Virus record (IMG/VR): IMGVR_UViG_3300045988_031782
Reading direction: 5' to 3' (one strand)
Length of the DNA: 5,758 bases
From: a virus
Shown here: positions 1-5,758 of the stretch, in pieces
How the letters are laid out: each line of letters begins with the position of its first letter
Numbering within the stretch: the stretch's first letter is position 1
The notes under the pieces: model-generated
Databases searched by the model: none
What the model saw: the letters and a program-made list of their open reading frames with translations, nothing else
What the model was told of the DNA's origin: nothing
Translations under genes and position numbers: made by a program

Positions 1-99
1 AAACCACGTTATGCTGTTTGCTGGCCACGACTGGTTTAGGATTATTTTATCTGTTGTTTTGGCGGTATCTTGGATGGTGTTATATCCATATACCGGTGC
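1..99. repeat. Left copy of the 99-nt terminal direct repeat (circular-assembly overlap)
   Basis: Base-for-base identical to 5660..5758 on direct reading. It lies inside the VP1 coding frame. Confidence 0.95.
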
Positions 100-777
100 A
101 TCACCTGCTAGGCTGATTTCCACAGGGTCAGATTTCAACGGACTCGGCAAACAGCTGGTGAAGTAGTCGTGGAACTTTCCGGCTTTTGCCGGTTTTCTTG
201 AGTATAAGGCTGCTTCGTTGGTGCTCGTGGTATTTTTCGGTTCGTTTACGCTTTCGTTTTTCAGCGTTTCCGGATTTTCACCATTTGAGCCTTCATCCGT
301 TTTTTTATAGCCCAGCATCAACGGTGCTTCGAGGTTTTCATCTCGGAACCACTCGTTGTAAATCATGGCGTATGCGCGTGCTGGCAGCGCGTTTACTTTG
401 ATTTTATTTTTTACTCCGGTCGGCAGTCCGAAGTAGTCTCCGAGGCTGCCATTGCTCAGACCGCTGATACCGCCGATCGTGCAAGTCGGTGTGCTGTATT
501 CGGTCTTTTCTGCCCAGTAATTTGTGTCGTTCTCTCCGAACATGTTCTCCCAGTGTTCCCACAGCAGACGGCACGGAACAAAGAAGAAGTAGGTATCCAT
601 GTAGCAGTTATCCATAATCGGATAGATGGGTGTGCTCATACGGATAAGCCCGTTCAGGTGTACTTTTGCTGTATCGCCCGGAAGTACTTCATCGCAGTAG
701 ATAGGCACCAGGTCACCTTCGTTTATGGTCGTCAGGAGCTGATGGCTTCTGTCAAATTTGCTTCGTGGTCGTTCCAT
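1..777 (-). CDS. VP1: Major capsid protein VP1 (F-like), N-terminal 259 codons. It runs off the left edge and continues at 5659.
   Basis: My translation from ATG 777: MERPRSKFDRSHQLLTTINEGDLVPIYCDEVLPGDTAKVHLNGLIRMSTPIYPIMDNCYMDTYFFFVPCRLLWEHWENMFGEND...NALPARAYAMIYNEWFRDENL...HDYFTSCLPSP. These are the hallmark Microviridae VP1 motifs (RSxFD.SH, EVLPGDT, TP..P.MDN, FFVP.R..W, ALP.RAY..I.NEWFRD, HDYFTS). The frame is open to position 1. 777 nt is exactly 259 codons, in phase with 4793..5659. It is not in the ORF track because it is open-ended at the window edge. Confidence 0.95.
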   Translation of the reverse strand, partial: MERPRSKFDRSHQLLTTINEGDLVPIYCDEVLPGDTAKVHLNGLIRMSTPIYPIMDNCYMDTYFFFVPCRLLWEHWENMFGENDTNYWAEKTEYSTPTCTIGGISGLSNGSLGDYFGLPTGVKNKIKVNALPARAYAMIYNEWFRDENLEAPLMLGYKKTDEGSNGENPETLKNESVNEPKNTTSTNEAALYSRKPAKAGKFHDYFTSCLPSPLKSDPVEISLAGDAPVYGYNTIQDTAKTTDKIILNQSWPANSITWF

Positions 778-802
778 TCGCGGCACTTGTGCGAAATGGT
801 TC

Positions 803-1240
803 TCACTGTTTCGGTTCGTTTTCCTTCACCCCTTCCTTTTTTTCGTCCTGCTTCGGCTGTTCGCCCGGCTTCTGTTGCTCGGTCTGCTGCATCTGTTTCA
901 GCTGTTCCATTGTTTCGGCTGCTGCCTCGGCCTTTTCGTGCATCGTCATGATATCCTTCGGTAGATTTTCAAGGTCAGTTCCTTCGGTGTATACCATGCT
1001 CTTTGCCTTGATGCTGGTGTCTCCTGCTTCCAGCCGTGCGATTGCGCTTGCAAGGTCGTAGCCCTCGCCCGCTCGCTGGATTTTCTCGTATGTGTTCTCG
1101 TCCGGCTGCTCGATGTAGTCGGTTGTGCCGTTCGGTCGCTTTACTGCTTTCCACGTTGGCGCGGTCTTGCTGCCCGGATTGTTTACCACTCTCTCGGTCG
1201 GTAGCCCGTAGTATCTTACTAGTGCTTCAGGATTTAGCAT
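803..1240 (-). CDS. VP3: Putative internal scaffolding protein (VP3-like), 145 aa
   Basis: ATG at 1240 is preceded by GAAGGAGA with a 7-nt spacer. The size and position (directly upstream of VP1) fit. The segment YDLASAIARLEAGD...TEGTD...LPKDIMTMHEKAEAAAETMEQL has the same layout I recall for gokushovirus VP3 (D-I-x-x-I-V-x-x-F-x-x-T-G ... Y-x-D ... helical EA-rich part). The C-terminal tail is acidic and Lys/Glu/Gln-rich. Confidence 0.55.
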   Translation of the reverse strand: MLNPEALVRYYGLPTERVVNNPGSKTAPTWKAVKRPNGTTDYIEQPDENTYEKIQRAGEGYDLASAIARLEAGDTSIKAKSMVYTEGTDLENLPKDIMTMHEKAEAAAETMEQLKQMQQTEQQKPGEQPKQDEKKEGVKENEPKQ

Positions 1241-1481
1241 TGGTCGTCTCCTTCAGGTCGATGAGTCGTGCGATGTGTTCAGGCATTGCTTCGCTCATGT
1301 AGCCCGTTTCGGTGTCGAATTCGCCCAGTTCTACGATCGAAATATCTTCGATTTCACTCGGCTTGCTTTCGTTGGCTTTCCAGCGTGCTGTTCGCACTGC
1401 CTGCGCCCTGTTGTTCTGCAGGAATGGTTGCGAGTAGCCGTTGGTCAATGCATCATGGAATGAGTAGAATTTCAGTTTCAT
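1227..1481 (-). CDS. VP5: Small non-structural protein, VP5/ORF5-like (conserved Microviridae family), 84 aa
   Basis: ATG at 1481 is preceded by AAGGAG with a 7-nt spacer. MKLKFYSFHDALTNGYSQPFLQNNRAQAVRTA...ISIVELGEFDTETG matches the remembered ORF5-family pattern (MK.F.V.D.K...Y..PFF......A.R.F ... D..L..IG..DD..). The 14-nt overlap with the next gene suggests translational coupling. Confidence 0.5.
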   Translation of the reverse strand: MKLKFYSFHDALTNGYSQPFLQNNRAQAVRTARWKANESKPSEIEDISIVELGEFDTETGYMSEAMPEHIARLIDLKETTNAKS

Positions 1482-1493
1482 GTTTTTTCTCCT

Positions 1494-1610
1494 TTATTCT
1501 TTGTCTTTGCTTGCGTCCTTCAGTGCGTGGTAGATTTCATCGAGCTTTTCAAGGATGCTCATCATCAGCGCAATTGCTTCCTTAACGTCCTTGACCTTAA
1601 TCAATGCCAT
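1494..1610 (-). CDS. Hypothetical 38-aa protein (below the ORF-track cutoff), predicted soluble amphipathic helix
   Basis: ATG at 1610 is preceded by a near-perfect SD, AAAGGAGGTG, with a 7-nt spacer. Translation: MALIKVKDVKEAIALMMSILEKLDEIYHALKDASKDKE. Its TAA stop is embedded in the SD (TAAAGGAG) of the next gene. It fills an otherwise unexplained gap in a tightly packed operon. Confidence 0.45.
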   Translation of the reverse strand: MALIKVKDVKEAIALMMSILEKLDEIYHALKDASKDKE

Positions 1611-1641
1611 TAAGTCACCTCCTTTCTTTGGTTTGTATTGC

Positions 1642-1758
1642 TTACAGTCGGATGCCGCCGCGCGAGACCTTCGGTCTGACGTTGATGTTTTTTACCCGCT
1701 TTGCAGTCTGGGTAAAGCGTTTCTGGTCGCCTTGACCTGCTCCGCTTCTGTGTGCCAT
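1642..1758 (-). CDS. Small basic DNA-binding/packaging protein (phiX174 J / chlamydiaphage ORF8-like), 38 aa, below the ORF-track cutoff
   Basis: ATG at 1758 is 2 nt after the M15 stop and is preceded by AAGGGGGTG. Translation: MAHRSGAGQGDQKRFTQTAKRVKNINVRPKVSRGGIRL. It has 10 Arg/Lys against 1 acidic residue. The C-terminal RGGIRL resembles the RGGIR[FL] ending I recall for gokushovirus ORF8-type proteins. Confidence 0.6.
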   Translation of the reverse strand: MAHRSGAGQGDQKRFTQTAKRVKNINVRPKVSRGGIRL

Positions 1759-1760
1759 TG

Positions 1761-2153
1761 TTACACCCCCTTTCTGTATTTTTTTCCGGTTCGCACATCA
1801 AAGTGCACCCAAGTGTTGTATACGATAATGCCGCATCCATCCGGTACGATTTCATTCAGTTTGTTGGCGAGTTCTTTTGTGCTCATGCCATCGACCCGGA
1901 TATCTGCTGCCATACCGCGCATATGGTAGCTGTATTTTGCTCCGTTGCATTTTTTGTTCCACTCTGGTGTTCTGTATCCGCTGGTAATGATTACCGGCTT
2001 TCCTAGCTTATGTCGGAGGATGTCCAGAACGGAATATAAGTAGTCGTCTATGAATACTACCGGACTGCCGTCTTTGCAAGCAAATTCTTTTACTTTGAAG
2101 TGTCTTGCAAGTTGTACGTTTCCGTCTGTGTTCATGATATAGCTTTTAAGCAT
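1761..2153 (-). CDS. Peptidase M15 family (Peptidase_M15_3 / YcbK-like zinc D,D- or L,D-peptidase), candidate endolysin, 130 aa
   Basis: FKVKEFACKDGS...LGKPVIITSGYRTPEWNKKCNGAKYSYHMRGMAADIRV...YNTWVHFDVR carries the family signature (EF.C ... SGYR....N...G...S.H..G.A.D ... VH.D), giving the H/D/H zinc ligands. I prefer ATG 2153 (AAGGAG 10 nt upstream) to the track's TTG at 2162, which sits only 1 nt after the SD. Confidence 0.88.
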   Translation of the reverse strand: MLKSYIMNTDGNVQLARHFKVKEFACKDGSPVVFIDDYLYSVLDILRHKLGKPVIITSGYRTPEWNKKCNGAKYSYHMRGMAADIRVDGMSTKELANKLNEIVPDGCGIIVYNTWVHFDVRTGKKYRKGV

Positions 2154-2379
2154 CTTTGTCAATCTCCTTTTTTAAGAATTTCCATATTCCTTCTGGTGCA
2201 GTGAGTGTGAATTGGTCAACGTCTCCTGTGTGAATGTTTACTCTGTATAGAACATCCTCGTAGGTGCCTTGTTCTTCATTCCATCTCGTTTCTATGTTGA
2301 ATTGGTGGTCTTTGCTTTCTACGTACTCGCCTTTTAGCAGCCATTTGATAGTTCTTTTGGATAGTCTAGGTTTTCTCAT
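2146..2379 (-). CDS. Hypothetical protein, 77 aa, first gene after the promoter. No family recognised.
   Basis: ATG 2379 is preceded by AAGAGAGGTG with an ~8-nt spacer, so I prefer it to the track's GTG at 2388. Translation: MRKPRLSKRTIKWLLKGEYVESKDHQFNIETRWNEEQGTYEDVLYRVNIHTGDVDQFTLTAPEGIWKFLKKEIDKDA. There is no hydrophobic segment. Its stop overlaps the M15 start (ATGCTTAA, 8-nt overlap). Confidence 0.6.
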   Translation of the reverse strand: MRKPRLSKRTIKWLLKGEYVESKDHQFNIETRWNEEQGTYEDVLYRVNIHTGDVDQFTLTAPEGIWKFLKKEIDKDA

Positions 2380-2411
2380 TTTGAGCACCTCTCTTTCTTT
2401 TCTGTGATTTA

Positions 2412-2440
2412 ATTATATCATTTGTCAATAGCTTTTTCAA
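2412..2440 (-). promoter_or_regulatory. Near-consensus sigma70/sigmaA promoter with extended -10, driving the 77aa-M15-J-38aa-VP5-VP3-VP1(-VP2) operon
   Basis: The minus strand reads TTGAAA (2440..2435) - 17 nt - TATAAT (2417..2412), with TG one base upstream of the -10 (TGATATAAT). There is an A/T-rich tract upstream. It lies ~33 nt before the first ATG, in the only sizeable gap besides the large non-coding region. Confidence 0.75.
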
Positions 2441-2494
2441 TGATTTTTGATGATTGTAATAATTTTGTAACCCTTTCTTTTGCTCCTTTGTTTT

Positions 2495-2513
2495 GAAAGG
2501 CGCTTTAGCGCCC
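2495..2513 (-). terminator. Weak hairpin downstream of Rep, a possible leaky terminator
   Basis: The minus strand reads GGGCGC-TAAA-GCGCCT followed by TTCAAAA. That is 5 G:C pairs plus a G:U, but only a short T tract. Confidence 0.3.
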
Positions 2514-2570
2514 TGCTGTATGGAGCGTAGCGGAATTCAGCTAATCCATTCCTTTTTAGCGCTGTGCGCG

Positions 2571-3560
2571 TCAAACTTTCGGTTCACGCCACTTTTGCTT
2601 TAGCTTGTCTTTTTCTTTCTGAATGTTGAGGTAAGTCTCGTAATCCACGCTTGTAGACTGTTCTAGATTGACCAAACTTTGTATTGCGCTGCGTCTGCGT
2701 CTGGCTCTAACCTCTCTCAGCTCGTCAGAATGTGCCTTAAAATAGCTTTCAGTGTCTTGGCTGGTGTCCTTATCTAGAATCTTATCAAAATAGCGTGGAG
2801 GCCTTTTCTCGCGTCCTCCTGCGCATATGATGCTATCTGTCTTTAAGATTTCATCTTTGTGTTCGTTTAGATACTTTTCGCCAATGCCTTTCGACATGAT
2901 TCGGAACTCTGGCTCTCTGCCTTCCATCCAGTATTTTGCCGCTTGCTCTGCACCTATGGCTTTCTTGTTGACGTATTGCGCCACGTATGCAAAGCTTCCC
3001 GGTTGTGCTGGTGAAAAGTCTATCATGCCCTTGCCCCAGATTTTTTGTAGCCACTCGCTTTTGAAATAGCTGTTGCCTTTTTGGTTTTTATACCATTGTG
3101 CATCCGGTGGCTTTAATCCGAATACTATGGCATGATAGTGTGGTCTTTTTGTTCTGTCGCCATATTCTGCCGCTAAAAAGTATTTTATCGGCTTCTTGTA
3201 TGCTTTCCGTAGACGTTTTAGAAATAGCTGCACGTCTCGCTTGCTTACTGTTTGACTTTGAATGCTTCTGTAGCCTTTGATGATTTCTCCGTACGGAATA
3301 TGTTCATCGTCATACGTCAGTGTTAGAAAAATCACATCGTCCCACTCTTTTGCCTCCAGCTCTATTCTTGTTGCCCATTGGTCTGCCATCTGTTTGCGGC
3401 AGTACTCGCATTTACCGCATGGTAACAATGCGAATTTTCCTTTTTTGATTCCGTCCATGATGTCCGTTTGAAGTCCTTGCTTTGTTAGGTTCTCCAGACT
3501 TCCCCACAGCTGCGGTTTTTTCGTGTCCATCTGGAATACTAATGGTTTTGTACATGGCAT
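2571..3560 (-). CDS. VP4: Replication initiation protein VP4 (HUH rolling-circle endonuclease, phiX174 A-like), 329 aa
   Basis: FLTLTY (motif I), RPHYHAIVFG (HUH motif II) and FAYVAQYVNKK (catalytic Tyr motif III) are in the canonical order, with CGKCEYCR upstream. I prefer ATG 3560 (N-terminus MPCTKPL, typical of Microviridae Rep). The track's GTG 3575 lies inside a hairpin stem. Confidence 0.93.
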   Translation of the reverse strand: MPCTKPLVFQMDTKKPQLWGSLENLTKQGLQTDIMDGIKKGKFALLPCGKCEYCRKQMADQWATRIELEAKEWDDVIFLTLTYDDEHIPYGEIIKGYRSIQSQTVSKRDVQLFLKRLRKAYKKPIKYFLAAEYGDRTKRPHYHAIVFGLKPPDAQWYKNQKGNSYFKSEWLQKIWGKGMIDFSPAQPGSFAYVAQYVNKKAIGAEQAAKYWMEGREPEFRIMSKGIGEKYLNEHKDEILKTDSIICAGGREKRPPRYFDKILDKDTSQDTESYFKAHSDELREVRARRRRSAIQSLVNLEQSTSVDYETYLNIQKEKDKLKQKWREPKV

Positions 3561-3567
3561 TTTTGTT

Positions 3568-3602
3568 ACCGGCACAAGCTTCCTTGTCTATCTTGTGCCG
3601 GT
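3568..3602 (-). promoter_or_regulatory. Perfect 11-bp inverted repeat (13-nt loop), 7 nt upstream of the Rep ATG
   Basis: The minus strand reads ACCGGCACAAG-ATAGACAAGGAAG-CTTGTGCCGGT-AACAAAA-ATG. A GAGGTG Shine-Dalgarno-like element sits 3 nt upstream of the 5' arm, and an AAGGAAG sits in the loop. Confidence 0.7.
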
Positions 3603-3635
3603 TGACACCTCGCTTCCTTTATATATTAACTTGTT

Positions 3636-3653
3636 GTAGTAGTAGTAGTAGTA
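3636..3653. repeat. Trinucleotide microsatellite (GTA)6 on plus, (TAC)6 on the coding strand
   Basis: Six perfect tandem GTA units read directly. They are flanked on both sides by TGTTG (TTGTTG-(TAG)6-TGTTGAAAC). Confidence 0.95.
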
Positions 3654-3654
3654 G

Positions 3655-3673
3655 TGTTGAAACTGTTGAAAAC
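3655..3673 (+). repeat. Iteron cluster A: 2 tandem copies of TGTTGAAA(A)C
   Basis: TGTTGAAAC at 3655 and TGTTGAAAAC at 3664, read directly. Confidence 0.85.
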
Positions 3674-3716
3674 TCGTTTTTTTAACGTTTCTACGTTTAT
3701 TTATTGCCTTTTTGCT

Positions 3717-3756
3717 TGTTGAAAACTTTGTTGAAAACTTGTTGAATTGTTGAATG
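3717..3756 (+). repeat. Iteron cluster B: 4 tandem copies (TGTTGAAAAC x2, TGTTGAATT, TGTTGAATG)
   Basis: Copies start at 3717, 3729, 3740 and 3748 (spacing 12, 11, 8 nt). The cluster abuts the 17-nt palindrome. Confidence 0.85.
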
Positions 3757-3773
3757 TTCGTCATTATGACGAA
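3757..3773. promoter_or_regulatory. 17-nt palindrome TTCGTCAT-T-ATGACGAA between iteron clusters B and C. Candidate origin stem-loop or operator.
   Basis: The arms TTCGTCAT and ATGACGAA are perfect reverse complements around a single T. As a hairpin this gives a 6-bp stem with an A/T loop (ATTAT on plus, ATAAT on minus). Confidence 0.6.
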
Positions 3774-3791
3774 TTTCTTTGTGCAACTTGT

Positions 3792-3821
3792 TGTTGAAAA
3801 CCTGTTGAAAGTGTTGAAAAC
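3792..3821 (+). repeat. Iteron cluster C: 3 tandem copies (TGTTGAAAAC, TGTTGAAAG, TGTTGAAAAC)
   Basis: Copies start at 3792, 3803 and 3812. The last copy is half of a small hairpin, GAAAAC-TCAA-GTTTTC (3816..3831). Confidence 0.85.
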
Positions 3822-3861
3822 TCAAGTTTTCCACATTCTTTATTTTTTGGATTATTGTTAC

Positions 3862-3888
3862 AAAAAAGGGGGATGTTTTCCATCCCCC
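3862..3888 (-). terminator. Strong rho-independent terminator after VP2
   Basis: The minus strand reads GGGGGATG-GAAAA-CATCCCCC followed by TTTTTTG. That is an 8-bp G:C-rich stem and a 6-T tract, starting 8 nt after the VP2 stop. Confidence 0.85.
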
Positions 3889-3896
3889 TTCCTTTC

Positions 3897-4754
3897 TTAG
3901 TCTCCTCTGTATGCGTTGAATGCGTCCATGTTTGGCATGATTGGCACTCTCTGGTTGTATTTTTTGAAGTTTCCTGCTGTGTCTTTGGCTGCTTTGCCAG
4001 CCTTTTCTGCTGCTTTTTTGGCTGCTTTACCAGCTCCCGCAAGGCCTGCACCTAATTTGCTAGCTGCATAGGTGTACTGTTGTGCCTGTTTTGCGCTCGA
4101 GGTTGCCAGCTCGCTCGCTGCCTGTTCCCAGCTTTTTGCACTCTTAAGCTGTTTTGCGCTGGTGGCTTGTTTTGCTAGCTGTAAGTATTTGTCTGCTAGC
4201 TCTGCCGTGTTGTTGCCGTATTCGTACATTGCGCTTACGCTTGCAGCCTGTGCGCTCTGCTGGTTATAACGTTGGCTTCCAATGCTTGCAGATGCTCCCG
4301 ATGGTGCGCTTGTTGCGCCGTTGGTCGCTGCTAAGATAGGATTGATGCCCGCTGCGATCATGTCCTTTACGGTGTCCTGATAGGCTGTCCCGCGCATTTC
4401 CTTTTGAAACGCTCGTTCTGCTGCTGCTTCTGCGCTGTTGTACTTCTTGGCGCTTGCTTGGCTTCCAGCATTTGCGAGGTTGCTCAGCAGTCCGCTCATC
4501 ATTTGCAGTGTGTTTGCGGTGTTTACACTGCTCTGATTTCCGAACATTGTGACGCCTGTTGGCGTGCTGATTTGTGTTGCTCCGATTTGCTGCGGTCCTG
4601 TTATGCTGCCTGTTGTGGTCTCGCTGCCTGTGCTGCTTTCGCTGCCGGCTCCTTGGCTGTTCTTGGCGCCGCTCTGGTTACTGCTTGTTATGATGCTTGT
4701 TAGCATGCCTAGTCCTTGCATGAGGGATGGCAAAAGCTTTAATAACGTCTCCAT
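3897..4754 (-). CDS. VP2: Minor capsid / DNA pilot protein VP2 (H-like), 285 aa
   Basis: NSAEAAAERAFQKEMRGTAYQDTVKDMIAAGINPILA matches the VP2 hallmark (A...R.F...M..TAYQ..V.DM..AG.NP.L). The flanks are long Ser/Thr/Gln/Ala-rich low-complexity sequence. The N-terminus is hydrophobic (METLLKLLPSLMQGLGMLTSIITS). It lies directly downstream of VP1. Confidence 0.85.
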   Translation of the reverse strand: METLLKLLPSLMQGLGMLTSIITSSNQSGAKNSQGAGSESSTGSETTTGSITGPQQIGATQISTPTGVTMFGNQSSVNTANTLQMMSGLLSNLANAGSQASAKKYNSAEAAAERAFQKEMRGTAYQDTVKDMIAAGINPILAATNGATSAPSGASASIGSQRYNQQSAQAASVSAMYEYGNNTAELADKYLQLAKQATSAKQLKSAKSWEQAASELATSSAKQAQQYTYAASKLGAGLAGAGKAAKKAAEKAGKAAKDTAGNFKKYNQRVPIMPNMDAFNAYRGD

Positions 4755-4782
4755 TCAAAAATAGCCCCGCTTTTGCGGGGCT
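4755..4782 (-). terminator. Rho-independent terminator/attenuator between VP1 and VP2, placed between the VP2 SD and its ATG
   Basis: The minus strand after the VP1 TAA reads GGAAGGAGGA-AGCCCCGC-AAAA-GCGGGGCT-ATTTTTGA-ATG. That is an 8-bp stem, a 4-nt loop and a T5 tract ending at the VP2 start codon. Confidence 0.75.
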
Positions 4783-4792
4783 TCCTCCTTCC

Positions 4793-5758
4793 TTAAATTC
4801 TTTCGATGCCCGGGATGCTGTAGATAGGCATTTCGCGGTACCAATCTTCTGTGAAGTAGAAGTCACATAAGAACTGGTGCGATTTGGCGCTTGTTACTGC
4901 GATCGTTCTGTCAATGTTCTGCGTTCCTTCTTGGATCCACTCTGCCGAGAGGCGCGGAAGTTTGTCATAATCGTCTGCATAGTGCCATGCATCCAAACTT
5001 GTCTGGTAGTTAGACCGCATTTCTCCGGTTACGTAAGAAGGCTTGTAGCGGTAGTCCGCCCAGGCCTCTTGGTAGCCAAAGATTTCGTCATCTTCGGCTG
5101 TGCCCTGTGCATAGATTTCACGGTTGTACACCGGTTGTTCGCCTAGTGCTGCCAGACGTGGGTCGTAGTATGTGAACCGCCCGCCGCGTGTCCACTTGGT
5201 CGCAAGTCCCTGCTGGTAGCTGTGTTCTACTCGTACTACTGCCAGGCCGATGATGTAGCCGTATTCAGTTGCTGCATAGTCCACCATCTGCTTGCTGCAT
5301 GTGGTCAGGCTGTATGCTGCCGTATTGCCTAGTGCCTGTCCGGTCGTCGGGTCCGTTTGGCTTGTCTGTACAACCTGATTTACGTTGATTGGGATGCGCT
5401 GTCCGCCGATGTACTCAGGAATTTGCAGACGGCTGTCCGGGCTTGTCACGCCCCACGTACCGGAAAGGAACTCGCGATAGCGTGTGCCGTTGCGTGCATC
5501 AGCTTCAAAGATGTGCTGCAGTGCGATGCTCATGCGCAAGTCTGCAATGCTGATTCCTGTAATGTTGCTGAGGTCTGCTTTTAGAAACGCGTCTGCGATG
5601 TAGGAACTTGTACCATCTGTGCCTTTTCCTGTCAGCTTTCCCCCTTTTTCTGTGTTTTCAAACCACGTTATGCTGTTTGCTGGCCACGACTGGTTTAGGA
5701 TTATTTTATCTGTTGTTTTGGCGGTATCTTGGATGGTGTTATATCCATATACCGGTGC
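4793..5758 (-). CDS. VP1: Major capsid protein VP1, C-terminal part. 4793..5659 is unique (288 codons plus stop); 5660..5758 duplicates 1..99.
   Basis: The frame is open from 5758 down to the TAA at 4793 and in phase with 1..777. My translation: ...ENTEKGGKLTGKGTDGTSSYIADAFLKADLSNITGISIADLRMSIALQHIFEADARNGTRYREFLSGTWGV.SPDSRLQIPEYIGG.... These are the conserved VP1 C-terminal motifs (ARgGtRY.E....FGV...D.RLQ.PEY.GG). The track's Met at 5539 is internal. The joined protein is 547 aa. Confidence 0.95.
   Translation of the reverse strand, partial: APVYGYNTIQDTAKTTDKIILNQSWPANSITWFENTEKGGKLTGKGTDGTSSYIADAFLKADLSNITGISIADLRMSIALQHIFEADARNGTRYREFLSGTWGVTSPDSRLQIPEYIGGQRIPINVNQVVQTSQTDPTTGQALGNTAAYSLTTCSKQMVDYAATEYGYIIGLAVVRVEHSYQQGLATKWTRGGRFTYYDPRLAALGEQPVYNREIYAQGTAEDDEIFGYQEAWADYRYKPSYVTGEMRSNYQTSLDAWHYADDYDKLPRLSAEWIQEGTQNIDRTIAVTSAKSHQFLCDFYFTEDWYREMPIYSIPGIERI
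5660..5758. repeat. Right copy of the 99-nt terminal direct repeat (circular-assembly overlap)
   Basis: Identical to 1..99. The repeat runs to the last base of the window. Confidence 0.95.

Follow-up and report, generated by a model that had tools for sequence, protein, structure and literature searches.

The locus described here raises the question of how a peptidoglycan-cleaving enzyme can reach the cell wall when the phage encoding it supplies neither an export signal nor a recognizable holin. The window, by which we mean the whole 5,758-nucleotide (nt) stretch of IMG/VR virus record IMGVR_UViG_3300045988_031782, carries on its minus strand a gene for a small zinc peptidase of the M15 family, which an earlier reading of the letters and their open reading frames (ORFs), hereafter the sequence-only reading, had attributed to a microvirus with no holin or signal peptide. 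The observations assembled below suggest that this enzyme most likely acts at exit from the host cell.

The gene occupies a minus-strand ORF that extends over 1761-2162 if read from a TTG and over 1761-2153 if read from an ATG. The TTG at 2162 was rejected as the start because the Shine-Dalgarno (SD) sequence AAGGAG stands only 1 nt before it, as against 10 nt upstream of the ATG at 2153, and because most homologues in a list of 120 are called at 130 amino acids (aa), matching the ATG start. The product matches the Pfam family Peptidase_M15_3 (PF08291; clan Peptidase_MD, or LAS) over profile positions 2-108 of 108 (80 bits against a cutoff of 23.2; E=1.7e-22), as well as Peptidase_M15_2 (35.7 bits) and PHROG 894, labelled 'endolysin' (E=2.9e-43); a match to the NCBIfam model MepK is far under cutoff (47 against 185 bits). 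Its motif comprises SGYR (58-61), N66, S75-x-H77-xx-G-x-A-x-D84 and W115-V-H117-x-D119, with the zinc-ligand codons at 1923-1925 (H77), 1902-1904 (D84) and 1803-1805 (H117). S58, R61, N66, S75, H77, D84, W115, H117 and D119 are invariant in an alignment of 45 homologues made up of two clades, one microviral and the other drawn from tailed phages and prophages. Furthermore, the SxHxxGxAxD segment containing H77 and D84 aligns with the SRHMYGHAAD zinc-site segment of the S. albus Zn DD-peptidase (1lbu), the aligned residues of which are known zinc ligands in that structure.

An AlphaFold2 model of the peptidase (pLDDT 69.6, pTM 0.70) is confident in the core and poor at the N-terminus (residues 6-27). 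Its Foldseek matches in the PDB are VanY, 1lbu, VanXY and Hedgehog-N (E ~2e-3), and in BFVD it matches viral M15 peptidases (TMq ~0.8, E=4e-13), several "Microvirus mar" peptidases among them; the model thus points to the Hedgehog/DD-peptidase fold. The SxHxxGxAxD...H zinc site and the core fold are common to the solved LAS/M15 structures (1lbu, VanY/VanXY, LdcB, ChiX and the T5 L-Ala-D-Glu endolysin), with a root-mean-square deviation from 1lbu of 2.6 Å over 90 columns; identity to these structures is just 15-27%, and bond specificity is not transferable at this level. The ratio of nonsynonymous to synonymous substitution (dN/dS) against nine relatives is 0.11-0.24, and the gene is real, intact and under purifying selection. 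We predict that it encodes a soluble, single-domain LAS/M15 zinc peptidase that cuts the peptide stems or cross-links of peptidoglycan. The sequence-only reading, which had called a full M15 zinc-peptidase signature in a frame starting at 2153, is borne out by the profile match, the invariant motif residues, the fold matches and the position of the SD sequence.

Equally sound is its assignment of the genome to the microviruses. The window carries an exact 99-bp terminal direct repeat (1-99 = 5660-5758), which identifies it as a circular contig with a true genome of 5,659 nt; if it is read straight through, the duplication doubles 33 VP1 codons. All convincing genes lie on the minus strand (Pfam, PHROG and an ORF scan) and, as is typical of Gokushovirinae, VP1, VP2, VP3, VP4, VP5 and a VP8-like gene are borne on one strand of a circular genome within the ~4.5-6 kb range. 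The nearest genome in GenBank is that of Human gut gokushovirus SH-CHD13 (KX513876; 89% nt identity over 91% of the length), which is classified there in Gokushovirinae and carries a coding sequence (CDS) labelled "peptidase M15".

The peptidase has more than 1,381 homologue clusters at E<=1e-10, and among the 120 clusters listed most of those on longer contigs sit on contigs of 5.3-6.2 kb. A 17.4-kb peptidase contig considered as a possible prophage is a trimeric assembly concatemer, and of the 5.4-kb contigs with FP_oengus-like peptidases, considered as microviruses, the one examined is a tailed-phage fragment. The M15_3 genes of gut gokushoviruses (KX513876, KT264791, MT121961 and the MG945xxx Microviridae of pig faeces) belong to the same family at 64-89% aa identity, and share with the gene described here the position between VP4 and VP5, the gut source and (pro)phages of Faecalibacterium as closest non-microviral relatives. 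Unlike these known gut gokushoviruses, the present genome has a backbone of the KX513876 type together with a peptidase allele of the KT264791/MT121961 type, and its ORF80 is unique. In a sliding identity profile the peptidase region is 79-92% identical to KT264791, the backbone of which is just ~50% identical, whereas it is just 69-76% identical to KX513876, the backbone of which is ~90% identical. The peptidase is therefore a mobile cassette recombining between gokushovirus backbones. Moreover, six related genomes of 5.2-5.5 kb share the VP8-like gene and a conserved 38-aa gene (ORF38) with the present one and are without the peptidase; the gene is thus accessory and dispensable across the lineage, which must have another way to complete its cycle.

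Mobility and patchy presence would also be in keeping with a cassette that adds little to the lysis of its own host and persists by recombination spread, or that attacks neighbouring cells from outside once the first cells have burst, a route limited to monoderm hosts and reminiscent of externally applied endolysins, which lyse Gram-positive cells. We consider this very improbable given the strong purifying selection and the strict retention of catalytic residues across many lineages despite a severe constraint on genome size; in addition, a phage that kills uninfected neighbours would deprive itself of potential hosts.

The closest non-microviral homologues (44-46% identical) are 138-aa single-domain proteins of the isolated Faecalibacterium phages FP_oengus, FP_Toutatis and Lelie, being the sole annotated endolysin in the first two and an annotated peptidase in the third. 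These enzymes have all invariant active-site residues and the single-domain M15_3 build in common with the microviral peptidase, but hold a 7-aa loop (PPGLGRA) that the microviral clade lacks. The FP_oengus endolysin gene adjoins an annotated holin and a transmembrane (TM) protein, and the prophage homologues are flanked by Holin_SPP1 and serine recombinases, whereas the copy described here has no holin neighbour; the ORFs flanking the FP_Toutatis and Lelie genes carry no annotation, and the holin context thus rests on FP_oengus and the prophages. In human-associated Gokushovirinae and Alpavirinae, Roux et al. 2012 (PMC3394797) counted 11 genes for M15_3 peptidases, which they took to have been transferred horizontally; of the five copies in gokushoviruses, four were affiliated to Faecalibacterium prausnitzii. 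These authors also pointed out that the prophage context is linked to holins, put forward a function as endolysin and speculated on Gram-positive, Faecalibacterium-like hosts. The horizontal origin, the endolysin role and the Faecalibacterium link were restated in papers of 2020 and 2022, and Kirchberger et al. 2022 treat the peptidases as lysis-associated accessory genes recombining between families. The remark in the sequence-only reading that such peptidases occur in metagenomic Microviridae is correct but understated, as they were published in 2012 (PMC3394797) and the gene is annotated in near-identical genomes in GenBank, KX513876 among them.

Signal and TM segments were screened for with two crude hydrophobicity scales, those of Kyte-Doolittle (KD) and Hessa. 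The peptidase has no signal peptide or signal-anchor-release (SAR) segment of the kind seen in SAR endolysins: its N-terminus, MLKSYIMNTDGNVQLARHFKVKEF, is polar, and its best 19-aa KD window (0.87) lies at residues 105-123 and is thus not N-terminal. After circularisation of the genome, no ORF of at least 25 aa in any of the three coding-strand frames reaches a KD of 1.6; the maximum, 1.44, belongs to the N-terminus of the pilot protein VP2, LLKLLPSLMQGLGMLTSII, residues 4-22 of which (4689-4745; Hessa 5.7) are the one hydrophobic stretch on the coding strand that comes close to TM grade. A Hessa-scale scan of all coding-strand stop-to-stop frames of at least 20 aa gave a best value of +4.2, in a frame inside VP1, with none near the strongly hydrophobic positive controls (phiX174 E, -3.4; the TM protein beside the FP_oengus endolysin, -1.6); two further controls, an FP_oengus protein annotated as a holin (3.9) and protein H of phiX174 (3.8), are close to this best value, and weakly hydrophobic TM proteins could therefore escape the scan. 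Of the canonical holin-endolysin cassette, then, the genome has the muralytic gene and, on the two scales, no small membrane protein. This agrees with the sequence-only reading, which had found no signal or SAR segment in the enzyme and no TM-length stretch on the coding strand apart from the VP2 N-terminus.

A TM-grade ORF is likewise lacking in 14 of 16 peptidase-bearing relatives and in the six peptidase-less ones. The first exception, KT264793 (peptidase 71% identical), has a 39-aa single-TM ORF at 5057-5176, between VP8 and VP5, with the SD sequence GAGGAGG; this ORF is unannotated in GenBank. The second, Dulem virus 195 (PP511409; peptidase 48% identical), has an annotated 35-aa TM CDS at 2593-2700, after VP2. 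Both miniproteins are candidate holins or single-gene lysis proteins, and indicate that holin-like miniproteins occur in some peptidase-bearing gokushoviruses, not in the present clade.

Given these two convincing single-TM miniproteins with good ribosome-binding sites, and the 45-aa membrane protein of the microvirus Ebor (PMC11980548), it is conceivable that a holin- or E-like membrane gene was missed in the present genome, for example because its ORF is very short or only weakly hydrophobic, because it is overprinted and begins at a non-canonical start codon, or because it lies antisense. An off-frame stretch in VP1 (404-607, minus strand) does read LLHGYLLLLCSVPSAVGTL followed by a very basic tail, a layout resembling that of phiX174 E. 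However, this frame was rejected as it has no ATG, GTG, TTG or SD sequence before its hydrophobic part and is reduced to 27-51 aa in ~90% identical genomes; it is the sole E-like frame, and no overprinted ORF of the phiX174 E type, with an N-terminal TM helix and a usable start, was found. The absence of any coding-strand frame of at least 20 aa near the strongly hydrophobic controls also speaks against a missed gene. The T-rich composition of the antisense strand makes its ORFs hydrophobic throughout, and these were set aside as a compositional artefact; a few of them remain open in close relatives, but most, including those overlapping the peptidase region, hold stops there. Microviruses, moreover, transcribe one strand, and a complementary-strand ORF is called 'highly unusual' by Roux et al. 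2012 (PMC3394797). We accordingly hold a missed membrane gene to be improbable.

A clade without holin, signal peptide or TM ORF could also do without a holin altogether if the peptidase stayed in the cytoplasm and, like VanX, VanY and VanXY, hydrolysed peptidoglycan precursors (UDP-MurNAc-peptides, D-Ala-D-Ala or lipid II), so that wall synthesis would be starved and growing cells would lyse. VanY and VanXY, which act on precursors, are among the best structural matches in the PDB, and a block of wall synthesis is the usual means of lysis in small phages (for phiX174 E, see PMC3394797). Like the phage described here, phiX174 is a small phage that lyses its host with minimal coding capacity; its E protein, unlike the peptidase, is encoded by an overprinted gene, spans the membrane and acts by inhibiting MraY, without any muralytic activity. 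If true, precursor attack would constitute an enzymatic 'protein antibiotic' paralleling phiX174 E, Qbeta A2 and LysM, for which a classical endolysin would have been re-purposed. Nevertheless, the closest homologues are canonical endolysins, those of FP_oengus and the prophages lying beside annotated holins, and the microviral copies show no distinctive change in the active site, the sole difference being the deletion of the 7-aa loop. The E-values of the VanY and VanXY matches are just ~2e-3, and the scarcity of solved M15_3 structures partly accounts for the high rank of these proteins. To our knowledge, no phage enzyme attacks precursors in this way. An attack on precursors thus appears unlikely.

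The nature of the host bears on the remaining alternatives. A contig from a Clostridia metagenome-assembled genome (MAG; L011, CANEEC010000048.1, locus 705-11275) carries alaS, ruvX, a HAD hydrolase and an amidohydrolase, followed by gokushovirus VP8-VP5-VP3-VP1-VP2, with the phage/host junction at ~7800-8050 and a VP1 59% identical to that of the present genome; this segment may represent a microvirus integrated in the genome of a Gram-positive lineage. Most genes of the present genome have a strong GGAGG-type ribosome-binding site. CRISPR-spacer networks tie some gut Microviridae to Clostridiales (10.1101/657528), and Kirchberger et al. 2022 described the first microvirus prophages in Gram-positive isolates. 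Together these observations make a monoderm host of the class Clostridia, be it Faecalibacterium or another member, likely, in line with what Roux et al. 2012 (PMC3394797) had concluded.

A probable Gram-positive host poses a problem of wall penetration, and it is possible to envisage that the enzyme, whether borne inside the virion or on its surface or set free together with VP2, locally opens the thick monoderm wall for the 25-30 nm particle or a pilot tube. M15 domains do occur inside large tail or baseplate proteins of tailed phages (BFVD matches of 800-1,191 aa and Gp5-OB fusions). A further point of comparison is provided by Gp7 of Ebor ('Tainavirinae'), the purified form of which degrades peptidoglycan and which is present in virions only in trace amounts (PMC11980548, 2025), a finding that cuts both ways for a role at entry. 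Like the peptidase described here, Gp7 is an accessory microviral peptidoglycan hydrolase related to tailed-phage enzymes; Ebor differs in its subfamily, in its alphaproteobacterial (diderm) host and in having the predicted 45-aa membrane protein, and the family assignment of Gp7 is also different, its closest reported HHpred match being 6SSC (PMC11980548). Against a role at entry, the 130-aa peptidase stands by itself and, compared with the tailed-phage endolysins, has neither a fused domain nor an extension for docking. No fusion to VP2 or VP1 occurs among the 120 top homologues, leaving out the longer calls (140-200 aa), which may reflect upstream start choices. For peptidase-less relatives, infection of similar hosts would imply that entry is possible without the enzyme, and T=1 gokushovirus capsids have little spare volume. 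For these reasons we find a function at entry rather unlikely.

In light of the above, we propose that the peptidase serves as an endolysin at exit and gains access to the wall through some non-classical breach of the membrane, and give this a little better than an even chance of being correct. The endolysin role is supported by the holin-linked homologues in FP_oengus and the prophages, by the PHROG 'endolysin' family and by the precedent of the active Ebor Gp7 (PMC11980548). Gokushoviruses would have acquired the peptidase from tailed phages of Clostridia with Faecalibacterium-type hosts, and the cassette would now move between backbones. The enzyme would build up in the cytoplasm late in infection and degrade the wall once the membrane barrier fails, such that progeny release would be faster or would be brought to completion. 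The leading candidate for the breach would be membrane insertion of the abundant pilot protein VP2 via its hydrophobic N-terminus, by which VP2 may double as a membrane-breaching factor replacing the holin; alternatively, the breach could come from a lysis function that the peptidase-less relatives must also possess.

Several points weigh against this proposal. The activity, timing and localisation of the peptidase are predictions, and an enzyme without an export route would not get to the wall, so that the explanation hangs on a putative membrane-breaching step. The VP2 N-terminus falls below the TM thresholds (KD 1.44, Hessa +5.7) and is equally hydrophobic in the peptidase-less relatives, and nothing therefore ties VP2 to the enzyme. 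These relatives also indicate that the lineage can complete its cycle without the gene, the contribution of which to lysis may be small. Finally, the host assignment is indirect: the prophage-like contig from the MAG may be a chimera, and its VP1 identity is no higher than 59%.

The small genes around the peptidase (Table 1) offer other potential partners. The peptidase ATG lies inside the last codons of ORF80, the stop of which is at 2146-2148, and this overlap suggests that the two may be translationally coupled. ORF80 has no Pfam, PHROG or NCBIfam match, and its slot between VP4 and the peptidase (~2150-2450) is hypervariable, with 20-50% identity to genomes that are otherwise ~90% identical; weak homologues are present solely in two relatives (L004 and L013). 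ORF80 was considered as an export chaperone akin to Ms6 Gp1 and rejected, as the slot is non-homologous in genomes with nearly the same peptidase, which makes a specific partnership unlikely. Its N-terminus, MRKPRLSK, resembles the MRKPRFTREEL of unrelated slot ORFs in peptidase-less genomes.

Directly downstream of the peptidase, with the SD sequence GGGGGTG, lies the VP8-like gene, the product of which ends in ...RGGIRL and is 57% identical to the 'DNA binding protein' of Dulem virus 195; equivalents are found in the Clostridia contig L011 and in L010 and L024-L029. This gene is without its own annotated feature in the GenBank relatives checked, and the order of VP8 and ORF38 is reversed relative to the peptidase-less relatives. 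A basic 45-aa ORF at 2437-2574 (minus strand), which starts with TTG and overlaps the VP4 stop, was considered as VP8 and discarded, the actual VP8 homologue being that at 1642-1758. It is 47-91% identical over ~30 aa in relatives, and it is unclear whether it is coding or reflects mere conservation at the DNA level.

ORF38, MALIKVKDVKEAIALMMSILEKLDEIYHALKDASKDKE, has a strong SD sequence, AAAGGAGGTG, and is predicted to form an amphipathic helix (hydrophobic moment, muH, 0.5-0.7) of acidic to neutral character. It is found in 31 GenBank gokushovirus records, almost none of which gives it its own feature, with a dN/dS of 0.05-0.14. It lies downstream of the peptidase in all peptidase-bearing relatives, and is preceded by a strong SD sequence in all relatives examined, including the six peptidase-less genomes. 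Its equal presence in those six genomes, together with its amphipathic rather than hydrophobic nature, led us to reject it as a peptidase-specific holin substitute; being present with and without the peptidase, ORF38 is a backbone gene.

Table 1. Coordinates of the features of the genome, numbered on the 5,758-nt window.
Feature	Coordinates	Strand	Basis or remark
VP1 major capsid protein, N-terminal part	1..786	-	GTG start at 786
VP3 internal scaffold	803..1240	-	Chlamy_scaf 22.9 bits, just below cutoff; position conserved in relatives
VP5 (Phage_ORF5)	1227..1481	-	Pfam E=4e-13
ORF38, 38-aa amphipathic-helix protein	1494..1610	-	conserved in relatives
VP8/J-like basic DNA-binding miniprotein, 38 aa	1642..1758	-	homology to annotated 'DNA binding protein'
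M15 (Peptidase_M15_3) peptidase CDS, 130 aa + stop	1761..2153	-	Pfam, PHROG, invariant residues
ORF80, function unassigned by families	2146..2388	-	GTG 2388, or 77-aa form from ATG 2379
Shine-Dalgarno AAGGAG of peptidase	2164..2169	-	read from sequence
VP4 replication initiator	2571..3575	-	Pfam REP_ORF2-G2P, PHROG 942; start may instead be ATG 3560
VP2 DNA pilot protein	3897..4754	-	PHROG 18604 and pilot-protein families
VP1, C-terminal part	4793..5659	-	Phage_F E=9.5e-88 (Pfam); gene crosses circular junction
Assembly overlap	5660..5758		exact copy of bases 1-99; assembly of circular genome

After circular reconstruction VP1 is a 550-aa ORF that runs from the GTG at 786 through coordinate 1 to 4793. 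At the VP3/VP1 junction (803-825, minus strand) the genome has an ACG where relatives begin VP1 with ATG (MNRN...), and VP1 therefore probably begins at the downstream GTG, as annotated in KX513876 and MT121961. The intergenic region between VP2 and VP4 (3576-3896, ~320 nt) contains nine same-orientation copies of TGTTGAA (TTCAACA on the coding strand) within 165 nt (3655-3818). The whole window has 10 copies against 0.93 expected, a number reached in 0 of 200 shuffles. The same region contains a (GTA)6.7 microsatellite at 3636-3655 and, directly after VP2 at 3866-3890, a terminator-like hairpin, GGGGGATG...CATCCCCC, with a T-run behind it; the VP4 start is overlapped by another hairpin, CCGGCACAAG/CTTGTGCCGG, which is perfect over 10 bp. 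A repeat element of similar kind is also found in more distant relatives, where it sits after VP4 in the opposite orientation. The repeat region may constitute iterons, an origin or a promoter array; a promoter scan gave matches no more numerous than the shuffled expectation.

The genome adds no new gene class but belongs to a large clade that has been sampled well, and how the enzyme crosses the membrane is an already recognised question. Roux et al. 2012 (PMC3394797) do not discuss the absence of a holin and, in the literature searched, one aspect is not explicitly covered, namely that a clade is without a holin while some relatives carry TM miniproteins; we regard this as a useful framing for experiments, not as a discovery. 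It amounts to a three-way natural contrast between genomes with a peptidase and no export device, peptidase-less genomes with ORF38 and VP8, and distant relatives with a small TM protein, and would make the question of what replaces the holin testable in a cultured host. The practical value of the enzyme, as a small candidate lysin for walls of the Faecalibacterium type, is modest. In the human gut, gokushoviruses rank with the most abundant and persistent phages, and the observations presented here support the idea that some microviruses infect monoderm bacteria.

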